Assembly (NCBI GenBank): GCA_964584545.1
Contig: CAZPAG010000001.1
Span: 29,762 to 64,924 of the forward strand
DNA length: 35,163 nucleotides
Origin: an uncultured Candidatus Saccharibacteria bacterium
Lineage (GTDB): Bacteria; Patescibacteriota; Minisyncoccia; Minisyncoccales; CAZPAG01
Reading direction: 5' to 3'
The notes beneath the pieces are model-generated. The model worked only from the letters and a program-made list of their open reading frames with translations, did not search any database and was not told where the DNA came from. Positions within the stretch are counted from its first letter, which is position 1, and the number at the start of each line of letters is the position of its first letter. Below, in pieces: positions 18,944 to 25,104 of the stretch. The translations under genes were made by a program, and so were the position numbers.

Positions 18944-20266
18944 TTAAGGTATCTGAAAATCTTTGCCAAACTCTGAAATCTCCTTCTTTATCTTTTTAAC
19001 CAGCTGACTATTTTTCATATCCTCCCTGAATTTTTTAAGATACTTTCCTCTTTCTTCTTTGTTCTCCGGCAATTTATAATTTTTAATCTCTTTAACTATT
19101 TGAGAAATCCAGCCTGCAATAAATTTCATCTCTTTTTCTTTCATTCCTCTGGTAGTGATAGCGGGCGTCCCCAGTCTTACTCCGCTCGGATAAAAAGGAG
19201 TTGCCGGGTCAGCAGGTATGGTATTTTTATTTACGGTTATTCCGGCCATATCCAAAGCGTCCTGTAAAAAAACTCCTCTGCCCGGACCGTCCGGCGTCAA
19301 ATCAATCACTATCATATGGTTATCAGTTCCTCCTGAGACAATCTTGACTCCGTTTTCCATTAAGCCTTCTGCCAAAGCCCTGGAGTTCTTAACTATTTGC
19401 TTCCCGTATTCTTTAAACTCGGGCTTCAAAGCCTCTCCCAAGGCTACGGCTATTGCAGCTGTCTGATGATTATGAGGCCCTCCCTGAACGCCACCCGGGA
19501 ATATGGCTTTATCTACTTTTTCTCCCAGCTCGGGATCTTTTGACAACCCTTTTTCAGTAACCATAATTATGCCTCCCCTTGGGCCACGCAGAGTTTTATG
19601 AGTGGTGGTCGTAACAATATGGGCGAAATCAACCGGACTCTTGTGAGCTCCGGCAATAACCAATCCTGCGATATGAGATATGTCCGCAACAAAGTAAGCT
19701 CCGACTTCATCGGCAATTTTAGAAATTTCTTCAAAAGGAAATTCTCTGACGTAAGCCGTAGCGCCACACCAGATAAGTTTTGGCTTATGCTCTATTGCCA
19801 AAGCCCTGGCTTCTTCAATATCAATATAGCCGTCTTTTTTAACGTGATAAGGAATACTTTTGAAAATCTTGGAAGTTATGTTTACTTTCCAGCCATGGCT
19901 GATATGCCCGCCGTCAGGAAGATTCTGACCCATTATCGTATCTCCAGGATTACAAACAGCCAGATAAACTGCGAAATTAGCCGGGCTGCCGGAATACGGC
20001 TGAACGTTAACATAAGGCACGCCAAAAACCTTTTTAGCCCGTTCAATGGCCAAATTTTCAATCTGGTCTATGAACTGATTGCCGCCGTAGTACCTCTTGC
20101 CAGGATACCCTTCAGAATACTTATCAGTAAGGATAGAACCCAAAGCCTCAAGGACCGAAGGCGAAGTATGATTTTCCGAAGGAATCATTTCCAACCCTTC
20201 TTTTCTCCTTTGCTTCTCGGCCTCAATCAGCTCGTAAATTTTAGGATCTGTTTGCTTCAAATACAT
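18944..20266 (-). CDS. glyA: Serine hydroxymethyltransferase
   Basis: MIPSEN, KYSEGYPGKRYYGG, TTTTHKTLRGPRGG, GGTDNH, SGVRLGTPA.TTRG. Confidence 0.98.
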   Translation of the reverse strand: MYLKQTDPKIYELIEAEKQRRKEGLEMIPSENHTSPSVLEALGSILTDKYSEGYPGKRYYGGNQFIDQIENLAIERAKKVFGVPYVNVQPYSGSPANFAVYLAVCNPGDTIMGQNLPDGGHISHGWKVNITSKIFKSIPYHVKKDGYIDIEEARALAIEHKPKLIWCGATAYVREFPFEEISKIADEVGAYFVADISHIAGLVIAGAHKSPVDFAHIVTTTTHKTLRGPRGGIIMVTEKGLSKDPELGEKVDKAIFPGGVQGGPHNHQTAAIAVALGEALKPEFKEYGKQIVKNSRALAEGLMENGVKIVSGGTDNHMIVIDLTPDGPGRGVFLQDALDMAGITVNKNTIPADPATPFYPSGVRLGTPAITTRGMKEKEMKFIAGWISQIVKEIKNYKLPENKEERGKYLKKFREDMKNSQLVKKIKKEISEFGKDFQIP

Positions 20267-20270
20267 AATA

Positions 20271-20864
20271 CTATCCCTTTCTTAGTATTGTATATTTTTC
20301 ACCGGTTAAATCAACCACCTCAGAGGGCTTGTTGAATTTTAATTTACCGGCATCAATTATTAAATCGGGCTTTATCTTTTCTCTTTCATACCGCCGGATA
20401 ATTTTTCTTACGTCATTCAACGAAGGTTGGCCGGAAATATTAACTGAAGTTTCTGCCAGAGGAAACTTTAGCATTTTAAGCAAAAGATTAATTAACTTAT
20501 ATTTTGGAACTCTAATCCCTATCGTTTTTTTATCAACTCCGTATAATATTTTTCTTCCTTTTCTGTTTAATACAGCTGTTAATTTTCCGGGCCATTTTTT
20601 TCTTAAAAACTTCTCTTGGCTTTTATTGATTTCCGATATCTCTTTAGCCGCTTTTATGTTTTCGACAAAAACTGGAATAGGATTAATTTTCGCTCTATTT
20701 TTTATCTTATAAATCTTTCCTACCGCTTTTTTATTTGTAGCACCACATAAAAAACCGTAAACCGTGTCTGTCGGACAAGCCACAATTTTACCTTTTTTAA
20801 TAAAGCTTGATGCTATCTTAACTACACTATTTAAATTTTTACGGGTTAATTTTAATATAAACAT
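20271..20864 (-). CDS. tsaC: L-threonylcarbamoyladenylate synthase (YrdC/TsaC, no Sua5 domain)
   Basis: PTDTVYG, IY.IK.R...NP, WPG.LT, IGIRVP, TS.N.SG, PS.VVD, ILRKG. Confidence 0.92.
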   Translation of the reverse strand: MFILKLTRKNLNSVVKIASSFIKKGKIVACPTDTVYGFLCGATNKKAVGKIYKIKNRAKINPIPVFVENIKAAKEISEINKSQEKFLRKKWPGKLTAVLNRKGRKILYGVDKKTIGIRVPKYKLINLLLKMLKFPLAETSVNISGQPSLNDVRKIIRRYEREKIKPDLIIDAGKLKFNKPSEVVDLTGEKYTILRKG

Positions 20865-20896
20865 TTTTTAAGTATATCATAACTAATTTAACTATT

Positions 20897-20924
20897 AAAA
20901 ACGAAAAAGCTCCCCGAAGGGAGT
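20897..20924 (-). terminator. Rho-independent terminator (CTCCC-TTCG-GGGAG followed by CTTTTTCGTTTTT)
   Basis: C(UUCG)G tetraloop hairpin followed by a U tract on the minus strand. Confidence 0.8.
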
Positions 20925-21105
20925 TATTATTGAGAAGATGAGTGAGCCGGGCGCTCTGTTTAAAGCTAAGTTCCAGCTTCTGAGCGCCCGAGCTCTACCT
21001 CGTGTTTGGCAGTTCAATCACTACCATGCAGGGTCTTATAACCCTACTTTTCGTTACGCAAGCGCCATATAAGGCGCGCCTATTCAATTAAAGGACAACC
21101 CATGG

Positions 21106-21145
21106 ACAAATGTAGGTAGGCAAGCACAAATGGTGGTAGGCAGGC
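21106..21145. repeat. 20-bp imperfect tandem duplication (ACAAATGTAGGTAGGCAAGC / ACAAATGGTGGTAGGCAGGC)
   Basis: 17/20 identical. Confidence 0.85.
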
Positions 21146-21353
21146 AAAGATATGGACGCGTAGCTACAGGTGATCGCGAGCCAGGTGTTTCACCGCTTTC
21201 ATACCTCCTCGAAATATTATGACCATGGAAATGAATGACAGAGATATCCCTTTTTCCCTGATATATCTCACATGTCCTCCTAAGAGATTCTCTTTAGCAG
21301 GCTACCCTGCTGTTCCAGGCCATTACCACGTGTGGCCCGGCGCCGGCCGTGGT

Positions 21354-21431
21354 TTAGTCGAAGTTCATTTTGCCGCTGAGGCGACCGCCCTCGACAGAGA
21401 AGACTGTATTGGGTGATCTGATAGGGTTCAT
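21354..21431 (-). CDS. Possible 25-aa small ORF MNPIRSPNTVFSVEGGRLSGKMNFD
   Basis: GAGGAGGT ribosome-binding site with the ATG 5 nt after GGAGG; no homology recognised. Confidence 0.3.
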   Translation of the reverse strand: MNPIRSPNTVFSVEGGRLSGKMNFD

Positions 21432-21506
21432 GCATACCTCCTCTATTTTTCGATAGATAGACCTAACCGACCCATATTTAGATATAAAAGTTCCTCCTTT
21501 ATAGGG

Positions 21507-21535
21507 ATACTATCAAAACTATAAAAATCTGTCAA
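21507..21535 (-). promoter_or_regulatory. Sigma70 promoter TTGACA-N17-TAGTAT with extended TG
   Basis: Plus tgtcaa at 21530-21535, atacta at 21507-21512, tca at 21513-21515. Confidence 0.7.
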
Positions 21536-21573
21536 GTTACTAGAGTATTAAGGATAATCGTTGAGGATCTAAC

Positions 21574-22830
21574 TCAACAGGTCTTTTTTATCCCGTTGAA
21601 TTCTGTCCGGAAAATAATATTATCTTCAATATTCTCAGAAATAACAGATGCGGGGCCTATTTGGCAATTTGAACCGACTAAAACTCCCGGCATAAAAGAG
21701 CAATTTATTCCCGTTTTTGAATTCTCACCCATAATCACCCCTAGAGAGTCCCGACCTGTCCCGATTTTTTCGCCTTTAATAACGGATTTTACTTCTCCCC
21801 TGTCAATTCTTACATTGGCGACTATTGTCCCCGCCCCAAAAAGGCATCCCTTTCCTAAAATAGAATCTCCAAAAAACCCGGAATGGCAATGTACGCCTTC
21901 CTGAAAGATGCTTCTCGTCACTTCAGTATTGGTACCGACTATCGTTTTATCCTCCAGATTAGAATAATGCCTAACTAAAGCATTATTGCCGATAACAGAA
22001 TCATCTCCTATGCAGCATGGACCTTTAATAACCGCGTTTTCAAAAATCCTTACGTTTTCCCCGATATAAACGTTGCCCTGGATAACCGCGCTTTTTGCGA
22101 TTTTAGCAGTTTTCGATATTTTCTGCTTAGTAAGATATTCATCCATTAAAAATTTTGTCGCCTCAAACAAATGCCAAGGGTATTTTAAAGAAGTAGGCTC
22201 TTTCTCAACAGTTACCGCTCTCACTTCTTTTTCTTTCATATACAATCTGAGGGCATCTTCAAAAGAATACATATTCCCCGGGACCTTTTGGCAATAATTT
22301 AAAAATTCTTTAGGCAAAAAGTAAATCCCGATTACCCTTATATCCGAGGGCTCTTTGCCTTTTTCAGGTTTTTCAACTATATTTTTTACTTCGTCCCCTT
22401 CCAAGCCCAAAACGCCAAATAACCATGGAGTTAAGGTTTTCACTCCCAATAAAATAATATTTGTCGAAGACGACTTATATTTTTCTGAAACCGACTTAAC
22501 GTAATCCTCTGCGTCAAATCTTTCCGCGTTTAAAACAAAAAATTGTTCTTCTAATAAATCTTTCGTCTTCAAAAAGGCATCTCCCATTCCTTTGGGCTCT
22601 GGCTGAATGACATATTTAACGCTTATCCCCAAATCGTGATTTTTTAATTCTTCCTCCACGTCTCTTCCTTGCCTCTGGACTATAATAATATTTTTAATGC
22701 CAGATTTCTTTAATCCTTCTATCGTATACCAAATCAAAGGCTTACCCATTATCTTAATGAGGGATTTATGCTTTTTATTCAAGGGCCAGAAGCGAGAGTT
22801 CTCCCCGGCGGCCAAGATTACAGCTTGCAT
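21574..22830 (-). CDS. glmU: Bifunctional sugar-1-phosphate nucleotidylyltransferase/acetyltransferase (archaeal-type GlmU-like)
   Basis: AVILAAG..SRF.PL, VEKP, YPW.L, hexapeptide left-handed beta-helix C-terminus, [17 protein letters not shown]. Confidence 0.75.
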
Positions 22831-23795
22831 AGTTTTGTTAAAATTTTAAGAGTTTTATGAGGGTCGTGGATAATAGGACCAGATTTTATCAAAAGATCGT
22901 ATCCTTTAAATTTCTTACAATCCAAACCGTCATCAATCTTAACTGGGTACAATGTGCTTTTGTCCTGTTTTTTGAAACTTCTAATCCTTGCTTTTGAAGG
23001 GATGTTTGTGTTATATACCACAAAATCCAGCTTGCAGCCGATATATCTCTCCATTTCGCGAGTAAAATCCAAAACCGAAAAACTATTCGTTTCCCCGAAT
23101 TTAGTCATCAAATTGCAGAGAAAAATCTTCTTAGCCTTACTTTTCCTTACGGCCTCCTTAATCCCTTTGGGTAAAAAACAAGGAATTATACTTGAATAAA
23201 GATCTCCTGGCCCAAAAATCAAAGAATCAGCCTTTTTTATTGATTCTAAAACCAAATTATAGGCTAAAGCCGCGGGTTTCAAATAAAGTTCTTTTATCTT
23301 TAAGTTTCCGTCGTGAAGTTTAGGAAAATCAATTTCGTCTTCTCCCTTGATAGATTTTCCGTTTTCCAAGGTGGCCCAAGCGTGAACCCTTTCTACTGTC
23401 GCCGGCAGAGCTTTATGTCTTTTTATTTCCAAAAAATCATGAGCGATTTTCAAAGCTCCCTTGAAATCTTTCAAAAAATACTCAAGACCGGCAATAAAAA
23501 CAGTGCCAAACCTGTGACCTTTGTGCCCTCCCGGAAACTTTTCATTTCCAAATCTAAATAAAAAAAGCTCTCTCTTCCAGTGAGGAGCGTTAGACAGAGC
23601 AACCAAATGGCGGGATATATCTCCCGGAGGCAGGATATTCAAATCTTTTCGCAACTGACCGGTAGAACCGCCGCTTTCCAGCATTGAGGTAACCGAAGTA
23701 ATCTCAACCTGCTTTTTTTTCAGCGGTTCTAAAACGGCTTTTGGCAAAGCGCTCCCTCCTCCGAAGCAAACAATTTTTTTCGTCTTTTTTGACAT
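22818..23795 (-). CDS. yvcK: YvcK/GlmR (CofD-like, UDP-GlcNAc-binding) family protein
   Basis: [50 protein letters not shown]; start MSKK at 23795. Confidence 0.88.
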
Positions 23796-23844
23796 AATCC
23801 TTTTTTTATCGTAATCTAAAATTAAGCTTAAGTCAAAAGCATTT

Positions 23845-25104
23845 ATGGAAAAATTTTTAATCACTGGGTGCACTCCTCTATCAGGAGAAGTTGAAATTTC
23901 CGGCTATAAAAACTCTGCCGGAGCTATTTTGGCCGCTACCCTTTTGGCCGATTCTCCTTCGACTATCGATAACCTCCCCGTTTGCTCAGACGTCTTAGAC
24001 CAAATTGAAATATTAAAACAAATGGGGGCAGAGATAGAATGGCTGAATAAAAGAAAAATTAAAATAAACCCCGGGAATATACATCCTGAGAAAATCCCGG
24101 CAAGCCTCTTTGAAAAAATGAGGGTTTCTGTTTTATTAGTAGGCCCCCTCCTGGCTAAATTCAAAAAATGCAAAGTCCCCCATCCTGGCGGAGATAGAAT
24201 AGGACTCCGCCCAATTTCCACCCATCTTATTGCTTTAAGGGATTTTGGAGTAAAAATCGAGGAAAAAGAGGGTTTTTACTGTTTTGAAGCGCCCGAAAAC
24301 ATTGAAGGAAAAAAAATTGTTTTAAAAGAGTTTTCGCCGACAGCGACAGAGATTATCATGATGGTGGCTGCCTTATCCAAAGGCAAAACAAAGATAGAGA
24401 TTGCGGCCGCCGAACCCCAAGTCCAAGATTTAGGGAAATTTTTAGAAAAGATGGGGCTGAATATAAAAGGTGTCGGAACCCATACCATTGAAATTGAAGG
24501 CAAAGAAAGGTTTTCCGGAACCGAGCATTCGATTTTTCCCGACCCGCTGGAATTTGGGAACTTTTTCATCGCCTTTGCCATAACTCAAGGCCAAGGAAAA
24601 ATCAAAAATGTAGTTCCGGAACACTTAACAATGTTCTTGGATAAAATGAAGGAGGTAGGGGTAAACTTTGAAGTCGGAGACAATGAGGTGGTTGTCAAAA
24701 AATCTTCAGAATTCAAGCCGGCGAGGATCCAAATTCTGCCTTATCCCGGTTTTCCAACCGACTTGCAACCCCAAACTTCTGTTTTGCTCACTCAGGCCCA
24801 AGGCAAAAGCGTTCTCCACGATCCGTTATATGAAAACCGCTTCCAGCACCTCCACGAATTAAGAAAAATGGGAGCAGACATAGAGGTGGTAGACCCTCAT
24901 CGCGCCTTAATCTTCGGCAAAAAAGAATTAATAGGAAATAAAATAAACGCATCCGATATAAGAGCTGGAGCGGCCCTAATCTTGGCAGGATTAATAGCCA
25001 AAGGAGAAACTATTATTGAAAATATCTCTCAAATAGAAAGGGGACACGAAAGGATAGAAGAAAAACTAAAAGGACTCGGTGCTCAAATCAAAAAAATCAA
25101 TTAA
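23845..25104 (+). CDS. murA: UDP-N-acetylglucosamine 1-carboxyvinyltransferase
   Basis: SG.KN, MR.S, PGGD.IG.RPI..H, PYPGFPTDLQ, YENRF, ASDIRAGAAL, RG.E. Confidence 0.96.
   Translation: MEKFLITGCTPLSGEVEISGYKNSAGAILAATLLADSPSTIDNLPVCSDVLDQIEILKQMGAEIEWLNKRKIKINPGNIHPEKIPASLFEKMRVSVLLVGPLLAKFKKCKVPHPGGDRIGLRPISTHLIALRDFGVKIEEKEGFYCFEAPENIEGKKIVLKEFSPTATEIIMMVAALSKGKTKIEIAAAEPQVQDLGKFLEKMGLNIKGVGTHTIEIEGKERFSGTEHSIFPDPLEFGNFFIAFAITQGQGKIKNVVPEHLTMFLDKMKEVGVNFEVGDNEVVVKKSSEFKPARIQILPYPGFPTDLQPQTSVLLTQAQGKSVLHDPLYENRFQHLHELRKMGADIEVVDPHRALIFGKKELIGNKINASDIRAGAALILAGLIAKGETIIENISQIERGHERIEEKLKGLGAQIKKIN

Follow-up and report, generated by a model that had tools for sequence, protein, structure and literature searches.

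The 35,163-nt stretch of DNA analysed here, referred to below as the window, comes from an uncultured Candidatus Saccharibacteria bacterium and sits on contig C1 of a 654-kb genome (36 contigs, estimated completeness 100%). Between a glmU-like gene and tsaC, where every surrounding gene lies on the minus strand, the window carries a unit at 20897-21535 that an initial annotation, made from the letters alone, had put forward as an undescribed large non-coding RNA or a structured mRNA for small peptides. We rate this unit as a real, undescribed structured RNA that is present in RNA libraries and has probable micro-ORFs (ORF, open reading frame). The unusually long gap that had drawn attention to the locus measures 709 bp between the glmU-like ORF and tsaC, and no long ORF fills it, the longest on either strand having at most 65 aa. 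The G+C content is 0.45-0.64 across 20900-21400 (100-nt windows) versus 0.18-0.32 just outside and 0.404 genome-wide.

The unit is framed by transcription signals of its own (Table 1). The near-consensus minus-strand promoter proposed for it was recovered with 10 of 12 matches and the extended TG present, which predicts a transcription start near 21500. It is the best of nine promoter-like sites in 20200-22200; the count of such sites alone is unremarkable, because shuffled sequences give 5.3 +/- 2.2. At the other end, a scan found the UUCG-capped terminator with its U-tract, which folds as described. The separate -10 element that had been assigned to tsaC was also found, as a TG-extended site ending 6 nt before the tsaC ATG, and TGATATA[CG]T likewise precedes tsaC in three of the related loci introduced below (L059, L090 and L130, read from their sequences). 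In these three, the TG-extended -10 (TGATATACT or TGATATAGT) ends 5-9 nt before the ATG. Because the -10 ends so near the ATG, without a Shine-Dalgarno (SD) box between the two, the arrangement suggests that the tsaC mRNA is leaderless or nearly so.

As a whole, the minus-strand RNA folds at -206.1 kcal/mol (z = -5.1), a value reached by none of 20 shuffles, while the plus strand gives z = -2.3 with one of 20 shuffles as good. All eight hairpins that had been listed for the unit fold as described, and six of them beat at least 97% of 200 shuffles; the other two, 21282-21294 and 21326-21352, are no better than chance (45 and 59 of 200 shuffles as good). The strand argument made earlier from two stems, GGUAGU/ACUGCC and GUAGGGUU/GACCCUGC, holds, since their G-U pairs read as such on the minus strand only.

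The predicted RNA is also found in sequenced RNA. Part of 20600-21900 is contained in twenty listed public runs, of which 11 are metatranscriptomes from lake water; the assembly may derive from three of the DNA runs. Contigs of four RNA runs from four studies were compared with 20300-22200. Each run gives one contig, with 0 differences and confined to 20983-21490, so that a lack of transcript, one of the refutations named in the initial annotation, is not what the four runs show. The contigs are 473-529 nt long with k-mer depths of 48.8-193.9; at least 508 nt of the unit are assembled from RNA libraries, with nothing joined to them. Within 20300-22200 the flanking genes have no cover in the four contig sets, which says nothing on the expression of these genes. 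In two runs the insert is flanked by Illumina adapter sequence at 21007 and at 21490 or 21467, which hints weakly that many fragments have their ends at these points; if so, the 5' end would lie within about 10 nt of the predicted start and the 3' end right after the hairpin 21025-21008.

None of the catalogued RNAs that were searched accounts for the unit. A cmscan of the whole window against Rfam 15 at gathering thresholds returns only a tRNA-Leu, in line with the earlier failure to place the unit in a known class, and an E-value-mode scan of 20800-21650 has its best match inside the element at E = 5.6. RNase P RNA, tmRNA, the RNA of the signal recognition particle (SRP), 6S, OLE, GOLLD, ROOL, HEARO, raiA, riboswitches and T-box were all considered and stay below the gathering threshold in cmscan. 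The genome has its RNase P RNA and tmRNA on other contigs (C11:5205-5645 and C13:10296-10660), and the small SRP RNA (RF00169) was not found in the whole genome, rated 100% complete, at E <= 1. The family of the unit is absent from Rfam 15. A decayed gene had been named as a possible refutation; in a check by Pfam scan only, none of the five longest ORFs has a match above threshold (best E 0.068). Literature searches on intergenic non-coding RNA in Patescibacteria and on small ORFs in the candidate phyla radiation yielded nothing relevant, and supplements of studies on G+C-rich intergenic regions (GC-IGR) might list similar regions.

Table 1. Features of the RNA unit and its neighbourhood, in coordinates of the window.
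Feature	Position	Strand	Remarks
Sigma-70-type promoter	-35 TTGACA 21535-21530; -10 TAGTAT 21512-21507	minus	17-nt spacer with TG
GGAGG box 1 (AAAGGAGGAA)	21493..21497	minus	extreme 5' end; counterpart in L034 is AAAGAAGGAA
GGAGG box 2 (AGAGGAGGU)	21437..21441	minus	SD-like site of putative ORF1
Putative micro-ORF1	21354..21431	minus	25 codons + stop: MNPIRSPNTVFSVEGGRLSGKMNFD-stop; begins MNPIRSPNTVFS
G+C-rich hairpins	21352-21326; 21311-21296	minus	first not beyond shuffles; second AGCAGG-GUAG-CCUGCU, z = -2.9
GGAGG box 3 (UUAGGAGGACAUGUGAG)	21276..21280	minus	followed by AUG-UGA and by a GUG opening a 35-codon frame
Hairpin GAGAUAU...AUAUCUC	21241..21269	minus	z = -2.7
GGAGG box 4 (CGAGGAGGU)	21204..21208	minus	SD-like site of putative ORF-B
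Putative micro-ORF-B	21164..21202	minus	MKAVKHLARDHL-stop from AUG 21202, or MKHLARDHL-stop from GUG 21193
CU-rich direct repeats (UGCCUGCCUACCACC, UGCCUACCUAC)	21112..21146 (21146-32, 21122-12)	minus	motif UGCCUGCCUACCACCAUUUGU / UGCCUACCUACAUUUGU
Three adjoining hairpins	21078-21062; 21047-21028; 21025-21008	minus	z = -3.1, -4.2, -6.0; second with UAUAAG loop
Long G+C-rich hairpin	20944..20995	minus	-30.6 kcal/mol, z = -5.4
CU-rich anti-SD-like tract CUCACUCAUCUUCUC	20932..20946	minus	just upstream of terminator
Intrinsic terminator CUCCC-UUCG-GGGAG + U-tract	20897..20924 (hairpin 20923..20910)	minus	
RNA-library stretch	20983..21490		4 contigs: 20999-21471, 21007-21490, 20983-21467, 21007-21467; minimum RNA extent
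tsaC promoter, TG-extended -10 TGATATACT	20871..20898	minus	outside RNA unit
CofD-family gene	22818-23873	minus	
glmU-like gene	21574-22830	minus	nucleotidyl-transferase + hexapeptide repeat, 418 aa
tsaC	20271-20864	minus	Sua5/YciO/YrdC family
glyA	18944-20266	minus	

Relatives of the unit were sought through its neighbours. With tsaC and the glmU-like protein as anchors, 9 and 33 loci were gathered from species-representative genomes and 80 from metagenomes, and the sequence downstream of the glmU-like gene was examined in 101 loci. In most of them the next gene begins less than 200 nt after the glmU-like gene. By reading, an ORF-poor unit running from promoter to terminator follows the glmU-like stop in 13 of the 101, in Nealsonbacteria-like genomes: L034 (= L015), L041 (= L017), L029, L045, L038, L059, L062, L064, L090, L102, L126, L129 and L124. 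This count takes the uncharacterised long-gap loci L119, L121, L136, L133, L085, L092, L071 and L113 as being without a unit; among the 13, the units of L126 and L129 are cut by contig ends and that of L124 lies further downstream. The family units are 290-660 nt long and hold no long ORF, all 12 that were listed have a TTGACA no more than 83 nt beyond the stop codon of the glmU-like gene, and none matches Rfam (for L015:1540-2420, nothing below E = 0.5). The window unit has the same make-up: it runs in the same orientation from a TTGACA behind the glmU-like stop to an intrinsic terminator and contains no long ORF.

Where the sequence is known, the unit is followed by tsaC, or by a small membrane-protein gene and then tsaC; downstream of the L038 unit there is only a 318-aa ORF whose identity is unchecked. 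The intervening gene, of 165-185 aa, has its own TTGACA promoter (L015:2405-2920, L017:1710-2207, L029:4260-4817), and its product reads as a protein with a hydrophobic segment at the N-terminus, repeats rich in Gly/Tyr or Gly/Pro and a tail rich in Cys and Trp; its one match, to Yae1_N, is sub-threshold. Elsewhere the slot holds unrelated protein genes, such as a 340-aa ORF in L025 (3692-4714) and small G+C-rich genes in L130 and L123. Because other loci carry protein genes there, the slot is variable, and it looks like a hot spot for promoter-bearing inserts. The glmU-like protein itself has 46-49% identical matches in L044 and L054, metagenome-assembled genomes labelled Aenigmatarchaeota, which reflects either cross-domain similarity or mis-binning. 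Two more G+C-rich, ORF-poor units lie elsewhere in the same genome, at about 480-860 and 920-1310 of locus L137 (G000:C3:25400-27200), each with a TTGACA promoter and a terminator-like end and without an Rfam match.

The related units are conserved as structure. L034 and L041 are 74% identical over 489 nt, and the covariation that the initial annotation had named as a check is seen between them as compensatory changes: of the 69 consensus pairs in their 3' domain none is broken, 8 are changed on both sides and 16 on one, while in slid controls, where partners were moved by 1-3 columns, 0-1 positions change on both sides and pairing is 35-49%. This consensus comes from two sequences only, with the structure derived from the same two; a covariance model built from the domain finds L102 at E 8.5e-7. 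The L059/L062/L064 group has 84 conserved pairs, including the helix that closes the domain. In both subgroups an invariant box AAGGRGGUGAU(G), which we call class A, has as its pairing partner the CU-rich tract that immediately precedes the terminator hairpin (CUCACCUCCU in L034, CACACCUCUC in L041, CAUUAUCUCC or CAUUGCCUCC in the L059 group), and this helix closes a 3' domain of about 220-230 nt. The class A box has the sequence of an extended SD site, and its partner resembles the anti-SD sequence at the 3' terminus of 16S rRNA. The exact class A pattern does not occur in the genome of the window. A scan of 401 genomes of the order gave two matches versus two in the control; the match in L147, which is identical to L059, is genuine, and that in L146 falls by chance in coding sequence.

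How close is the window copy to this family? Its local alignment scores z = 3.7 with L041, which none of 100 shuffles equals, and z = 2.5 with L034, which one of 100 does; both alignments are colinear. The three share a 5' leader (AAAG[G/A]AGGAA ... GGUCGGUU.GGU ... AAAAA..GAGGAGG) and a 3' end (CUCAC.UC.UC, then the terminator), and the tract at 20946-20932 aligns with CUCACCUCCUC in L034 and CACACCUCUC in L041. The hairpin 20944-20995 matches in position the long G+C-rich hairpin ahead of the terminator in L034 and L041 (helix 10), and the UAUAAR hairpin differs between the window and L034 by a G-C to A-U exchange; hairpins like CAGGGUAGCC also occur in L126 and L034 (the last two points read from the sequences). 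We conclude that the window unit is, as far as such comparisons tell, a divergent member of the lineage-restricted slot family, with which it has the ends, one hairpin, the box/tract design and two micro-ORF cores in common. Homologues sought in related genomes were met at BLAST level, in 41 genomes of the order, only as 19-32-nt matches in the promoter and terminator parts. An nhmmer search with the window unit against the nine tsaC loci gave nothing, and a scan of genome contigs for the leader pattern shared with L034 gave eight matches, of which only the L034 contig is relevant; the BLAST-level search and the class A and leader pattern scans thus found no close relative of the window copy.

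Purine boxes and pyrimidine tracts recur along the RNA. There are four GGAGG boxes in sense and none in antisense orientation, where shuffles average 0.56 (P = 0.0025). Box 3 resembles the class A box AAGGRGGUGAUG, a likeness seen by eye only, and with the tract at 20946-20932 box 3 has a duplex energy of -13.7 and box 4 of -13.9 kcal/mol. This tract and the CU-rich repeats at 21146-21112 are candidate seeds for pairing with target RNAs; for the repeats we recognised no counterpart in the relatives. The second of the two L137 units also has a tract, AUCACCUUCCUCU, that resembles a 16S 3' end. The 16S rRNA of this genome is assembled for model positions 1-657 only, at the end of contig C7 (cmscan), and a whole-genome search with RF00177 returned nothing despite this partial gene; because the 16S 3' end is not assembled, the real anti-SD of the organism is unread.

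Two of the boxes precede putative micro-ORFs whose peptide cores recur in the relatives. The core I-R-S-P-x-T of ORF1 is common to L034 (MVGIRSPATTSC..., MVGIRSPATT...), with the codons ATC/ATT, AGA/AGA, TCA/AGT, CCC/CCG and ACA/ACT in window and L034. Other first ORFs read MLFIRDGPNV... (L126), M.RYHSGFT-stop (L041), MLFPTGFT-stop (L045) and VKYPTGFT-stop (L102); the last two share the core P-T-G-F-T-stop through CCA/CCG, ACG/ACC, GGG/GGA and TGA/TAG. ORF-B has the core [H/R]-L-[P/A]-R-D-x-x-stop, seen as M(KAV)KHLARDHL-stop in the window, MHLPRDFP-stop in L059/L062/L064 and MRLPRDFI-stop in L124, with leucine coded as CUU/UUA/CUG; cores of the same type occur in L090 (..KHCPRDWVF-stop and MTHTRDPCW..) and L129 (MRHHSRDTPC-stop). 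Counting as SD-led any ORF of 2-40 codons that starts 3-14 nt after a GGAGG-type box, 12 lineages hold 40 in sense versus 17 on the reverse complement. In a blind test, the best ungapped BLOSUM62 scores between SD-led ORFs, summed over 66 lineage pairs, come to 1043 in the true frame, the highest of the three, with 17 of 66 pairs at 20 or more; the +1 frame gives 957 and 6 such pairs, and shuffled ORF bodies give 918.5 +/- 28.1 (maximum 988 in 100) and a mean of 5.3 pairs. Peptide-level selection on the micro-ORFs is suggested by these comparisons, not proven. We considered and dropped the idea that ORF1 is an ANN-codon-rich tsaC leader sensing t6A, as 9 of its 24 codons after the start are ANN, which we judged ordinary for an A+T-rich genome.

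Taken together, the unit is a stand-alone RNA gene, not a leader and not a dead gene. The proposal of an undescribed large non-coding RNA or a structured small-peptide mRNA is supported by the lack of Rfam and Pfam matches, the compensatory changes and the RNA contigs, and probably both of its alternatives are partly true. The explanation that we prefer, and hold tentatively, is a dual-function RNA gene: a structured RNA that also presents micro-ORFs to ribosomes. A stable hairpin scaffold would present the SD-led ORF1 (25 codons, IRSPxT) and ORF-B (9-12 codons, HLxRD), with boxes 2 and 4 recruiting ribosomes to them. The GGAGG boxes may alternate between internal pairing with a CU tract and binding of the 30S subunit; because some boxes would recruit ribosomes and others would find partners in the CU tracts, binding of ribosomes would compete with pairing inside the RNA. 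Translation of the micro-ORFs may then remodel the fold, or the fold may gate translation.

Several observations weigh against this dual-function reading, or against parts of it. On the side of structure, boxes 3 and 4 are equal in their tract-pairing energy and the ensemble favours local pairing, and the box-tract duplex energies in the relatives do not go beyond shuffles (fractions 0.10-0.25, from the usable rows L034, L029, L038 and L045 only). The predicted ribosome sites are largely paired, with unpaired probabilities of 0.15 for ORF1 and 0.31 for ORF-B, and the GGAGG of ORF-B lies 1 nt from its AUG and 10 nt from its GUG. As to the peptides, the micro-ORF MIV-stop at the class A box is better explained as RNA structure than as a gene, because it is embedded in conserved helices and conservation of its peptide extends to no more than three residues. 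The codon pairs of the anchored cores comprise 43 that encode one residue by different codons, 40 that are identical and 73 that are non-synonymous; spans shifted by one or two bases give 15 and 20 synonymous pairs. This count is biased, as the motifs were already known when the anchors were picked. In the blind test the +2 frame, too, lies above the shuffles (1016, with 12 pairs scoring at least 20), so that part of the peptide signal is nucleotide conservation. Kinship with the family is weakened by 9 of 11 pairwise alignments of the window unit with family units being no better than shuffles, by four family nhmmer profiles without a match at E <= 10 anywhere in the genome, and by the L034/L041 covariance model, which under default filters misses the window. 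When the filters are switched off, the model picks out just the 23-nt hairpin 21050-21028 (7.5 bits, E 0.0033 in 711 nt); the UAUAAG loop of this hairpin is the counterpart of the model's helix 7. Finally, the RNA contigs stop 85-110 nt before the predicted terminator, which leaves the length of the mature RNA unsettled; they show neither strand, ends nor level, and carry-over of DNA into the RNA libraries is not formally excluded.

A purely non-coding structured RNA, whose boxes and tracts serve as structural partners or as sites that bind 30S or the ribosome-binding sites (RBSs) of targets, is possible if rather doubtful. The micro-ORFs would then be by-products of purine boxes next to AUG or GUG. 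The strength of the fold and the compensatory helices of the relatives speak for it, as do the position of the class A box and the MIV codons inside helices, the abundant, discrete piece represented by the RNA contigs and the above-shuffle score of the +2 frame. In L059, moreover, the codons CAC-CUU-CCU of ORF-B make up the 3' side of a hairpin together with the GGAGG box of this same ORF. Such an RNA would not explain why IRSPxT is common to the window and L034 at 50% nucleotide identity and across a TCA/AGT serine switch, nor the varied leucine codons of ORF-B. The five bases that differ in the PTGFT-stop of L045 and L102 also argue for peptides: three are synonymous third-position changes, one exchanges stop for stop and one is a conservative F/Y change. 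The true frame scoring highest and the excess of SD-led ORFs in sense point the same way.

Could the unit instead be an ordinary polycistronic mRNA for small proteins, with hairpins that merely stabilise the message and no separate RNA function? We consider this improbable. Strong SD boxes, start and stop codons, recurring peptide cores and the strong promoter and terminator would suit such a message. However, ORF1 and ORF-B together occupy at most 117 nt, less than one fifth of about 600 nt; about 260 nt on the 3' side of ORF-B have no conserved frame, the 3' domain of the relatives is conserved as structure with a closing helix, and the number, order and length of the micro-ORFs vary among relatives.

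A bolder version of the dual-function idea, to which we give little credence, is a translation-sensing riboregulator with micro-ORFs that pause or arrest their own nascent chains through Arg-(Ser/Asp)-(x)-Pro cores. A ribosome held on the micro-ORFs would flip GGAGG:CU-tract helices that mimic the SD/anti-SD duplex, so that a very abundant RNA would change from closed to open or back; when open, it might titrate 30S subunits, expose CU-rich seeds to target RBSs or permit read-through into the t6A gene tsaC. If true, this would be an arrest-peptide RNA that stands alone, with no target gene attached to it, in a phylum for which hardly any regulators are known.

A cis-acting leader or attenuator controlling read-through into tsaC, for example by sensing micro-ORF translation, is very unlikely. 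The unit does lie upstream of tsaC, or of the small membrane-protein gene and then tsaC, and micro-ORFs followed by a terminator recall leader-peptide attenuators, but tsaC is preceded by a TG-extended -10 of its own that is also conserved in L059, L090 and L130, another gene with its own promoter intervenes in L015, L017 and L029, and no RNA contig reaches into tsaC. That the unit is what remains of a decayed or foreign gene, or else an inert inserted cassette, is barely credible: its G+C content exceeds the genome mean and the content of the slot differs among relatives, but none of the five longest ORFs has a Pfam match above threshold, promoter, terminator and fold are intact, the unit is present in RNA libraries and the relatives keep both the structure and the micro-ORF cores.

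Genomes of Patescibacteria (the candidate phyla radiation) measure about 0.5-1 Mb, and to our knowledge few regulators or non-coding RNAs beyond the universal ones have been characterised in these bacteria. Against this background, the locus offers an RNA of about 0.5 kb that appears as a discrete piece in several metatranscriptomes, folds far beyond chance and combines SD/anti-SD-like helices with probable conserved micro-ORFs. If the micro-ORFs are translated, they would yield micropeptides of 9-25 residues with an arrest-like core; if they are not, the unit would represent a new family of large structured RNAs built on mimicry of the ribosome-binding duplex.

Finally, we would like to compare the unit with known systems. 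CsrB/RsmZ-type RNAs are protein sponges with repeated GGA-containing boxes, and the unit shares with them repeated purine boxes of this kind in a structured, abundant RNA; unlike them it has four boxes only, with the full GGAGG and start codons following. A CsrB-like sponge is unlikely because no CsrA gene (PF02599) was found in this genome, rated 100% complete, by a search that was positive in 3 of 14 control genomes. Leader-peptide attenuators of the ermC and trp types likewise combine micro-ORFs, hairpins that sequester SD sites and a downstream terminator, but the gene downstream of the unit has its own promoter, other genes intervene in some relatives and the unit, at about 600 nt, is far longer.

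The GC-IGR and DIMPL pipelines search for non-coding RNA candidates in long G+C-rich intergenic regions of A+T-rich genomes, according to the published descriptions (PMC6429828, PMC8632094, PMC11109978, PMC8723152). The unit was detected by this same signature, in an A+T-richer genome; no Rfam 15 family built from these studies matches it. The putative peptides can be compared with the ribosome arrest peptides of the RAPP/RAGP type, such as ApdA, ApdP, ApcA and SecM (PMC12992588, PMC10951233 and PMC10951299). In PMC12992588, Ser or Asp in place of Ala in the arrest core is described as partly permissive, the motifs as tending to lie near the C-terminus of small proteins, and RSPP, RDPP and RAGP as depleted from proteomes. 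Measured against that description, the micro-ORFs show a similar Arg-small-Pro core, RSP in the window and L034, RDP in L090 and RDGP in L126, next to RAGP in SecM. The window lacks the A-site proline (RSPN in ORF1; ARDHL-stop, without any Pro, in ORF-B), and the core ends in Pro only in L126 (R-D-G-P) and L059 (R-D-F-P-stop). The unit also differs in having no co-transcribed downstream target, given its terminator, the separate tsaC promoter and the absence of a bridging contig. By this analogy, the likeness of the window cores is a lead, not membership.

Parallels in overall design are found in the dual-function regulatory RNAs, among them RNAIII/hld of Staphylococcus, SR1/SR1P of Bacillus and SgrS/SgrT of E. 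coli. The unit has no sequence or Rfam relation to them; like them, it has its own promoter and terminator, spans several hundred nucleotides with many hairpins and carries small SD-led ORFs inside, in its case several putative micro-ORFs of 9-25 codons rather than one. If these are translated, a multi-ORF type would join the short list of dual-function bacterial RNAs.

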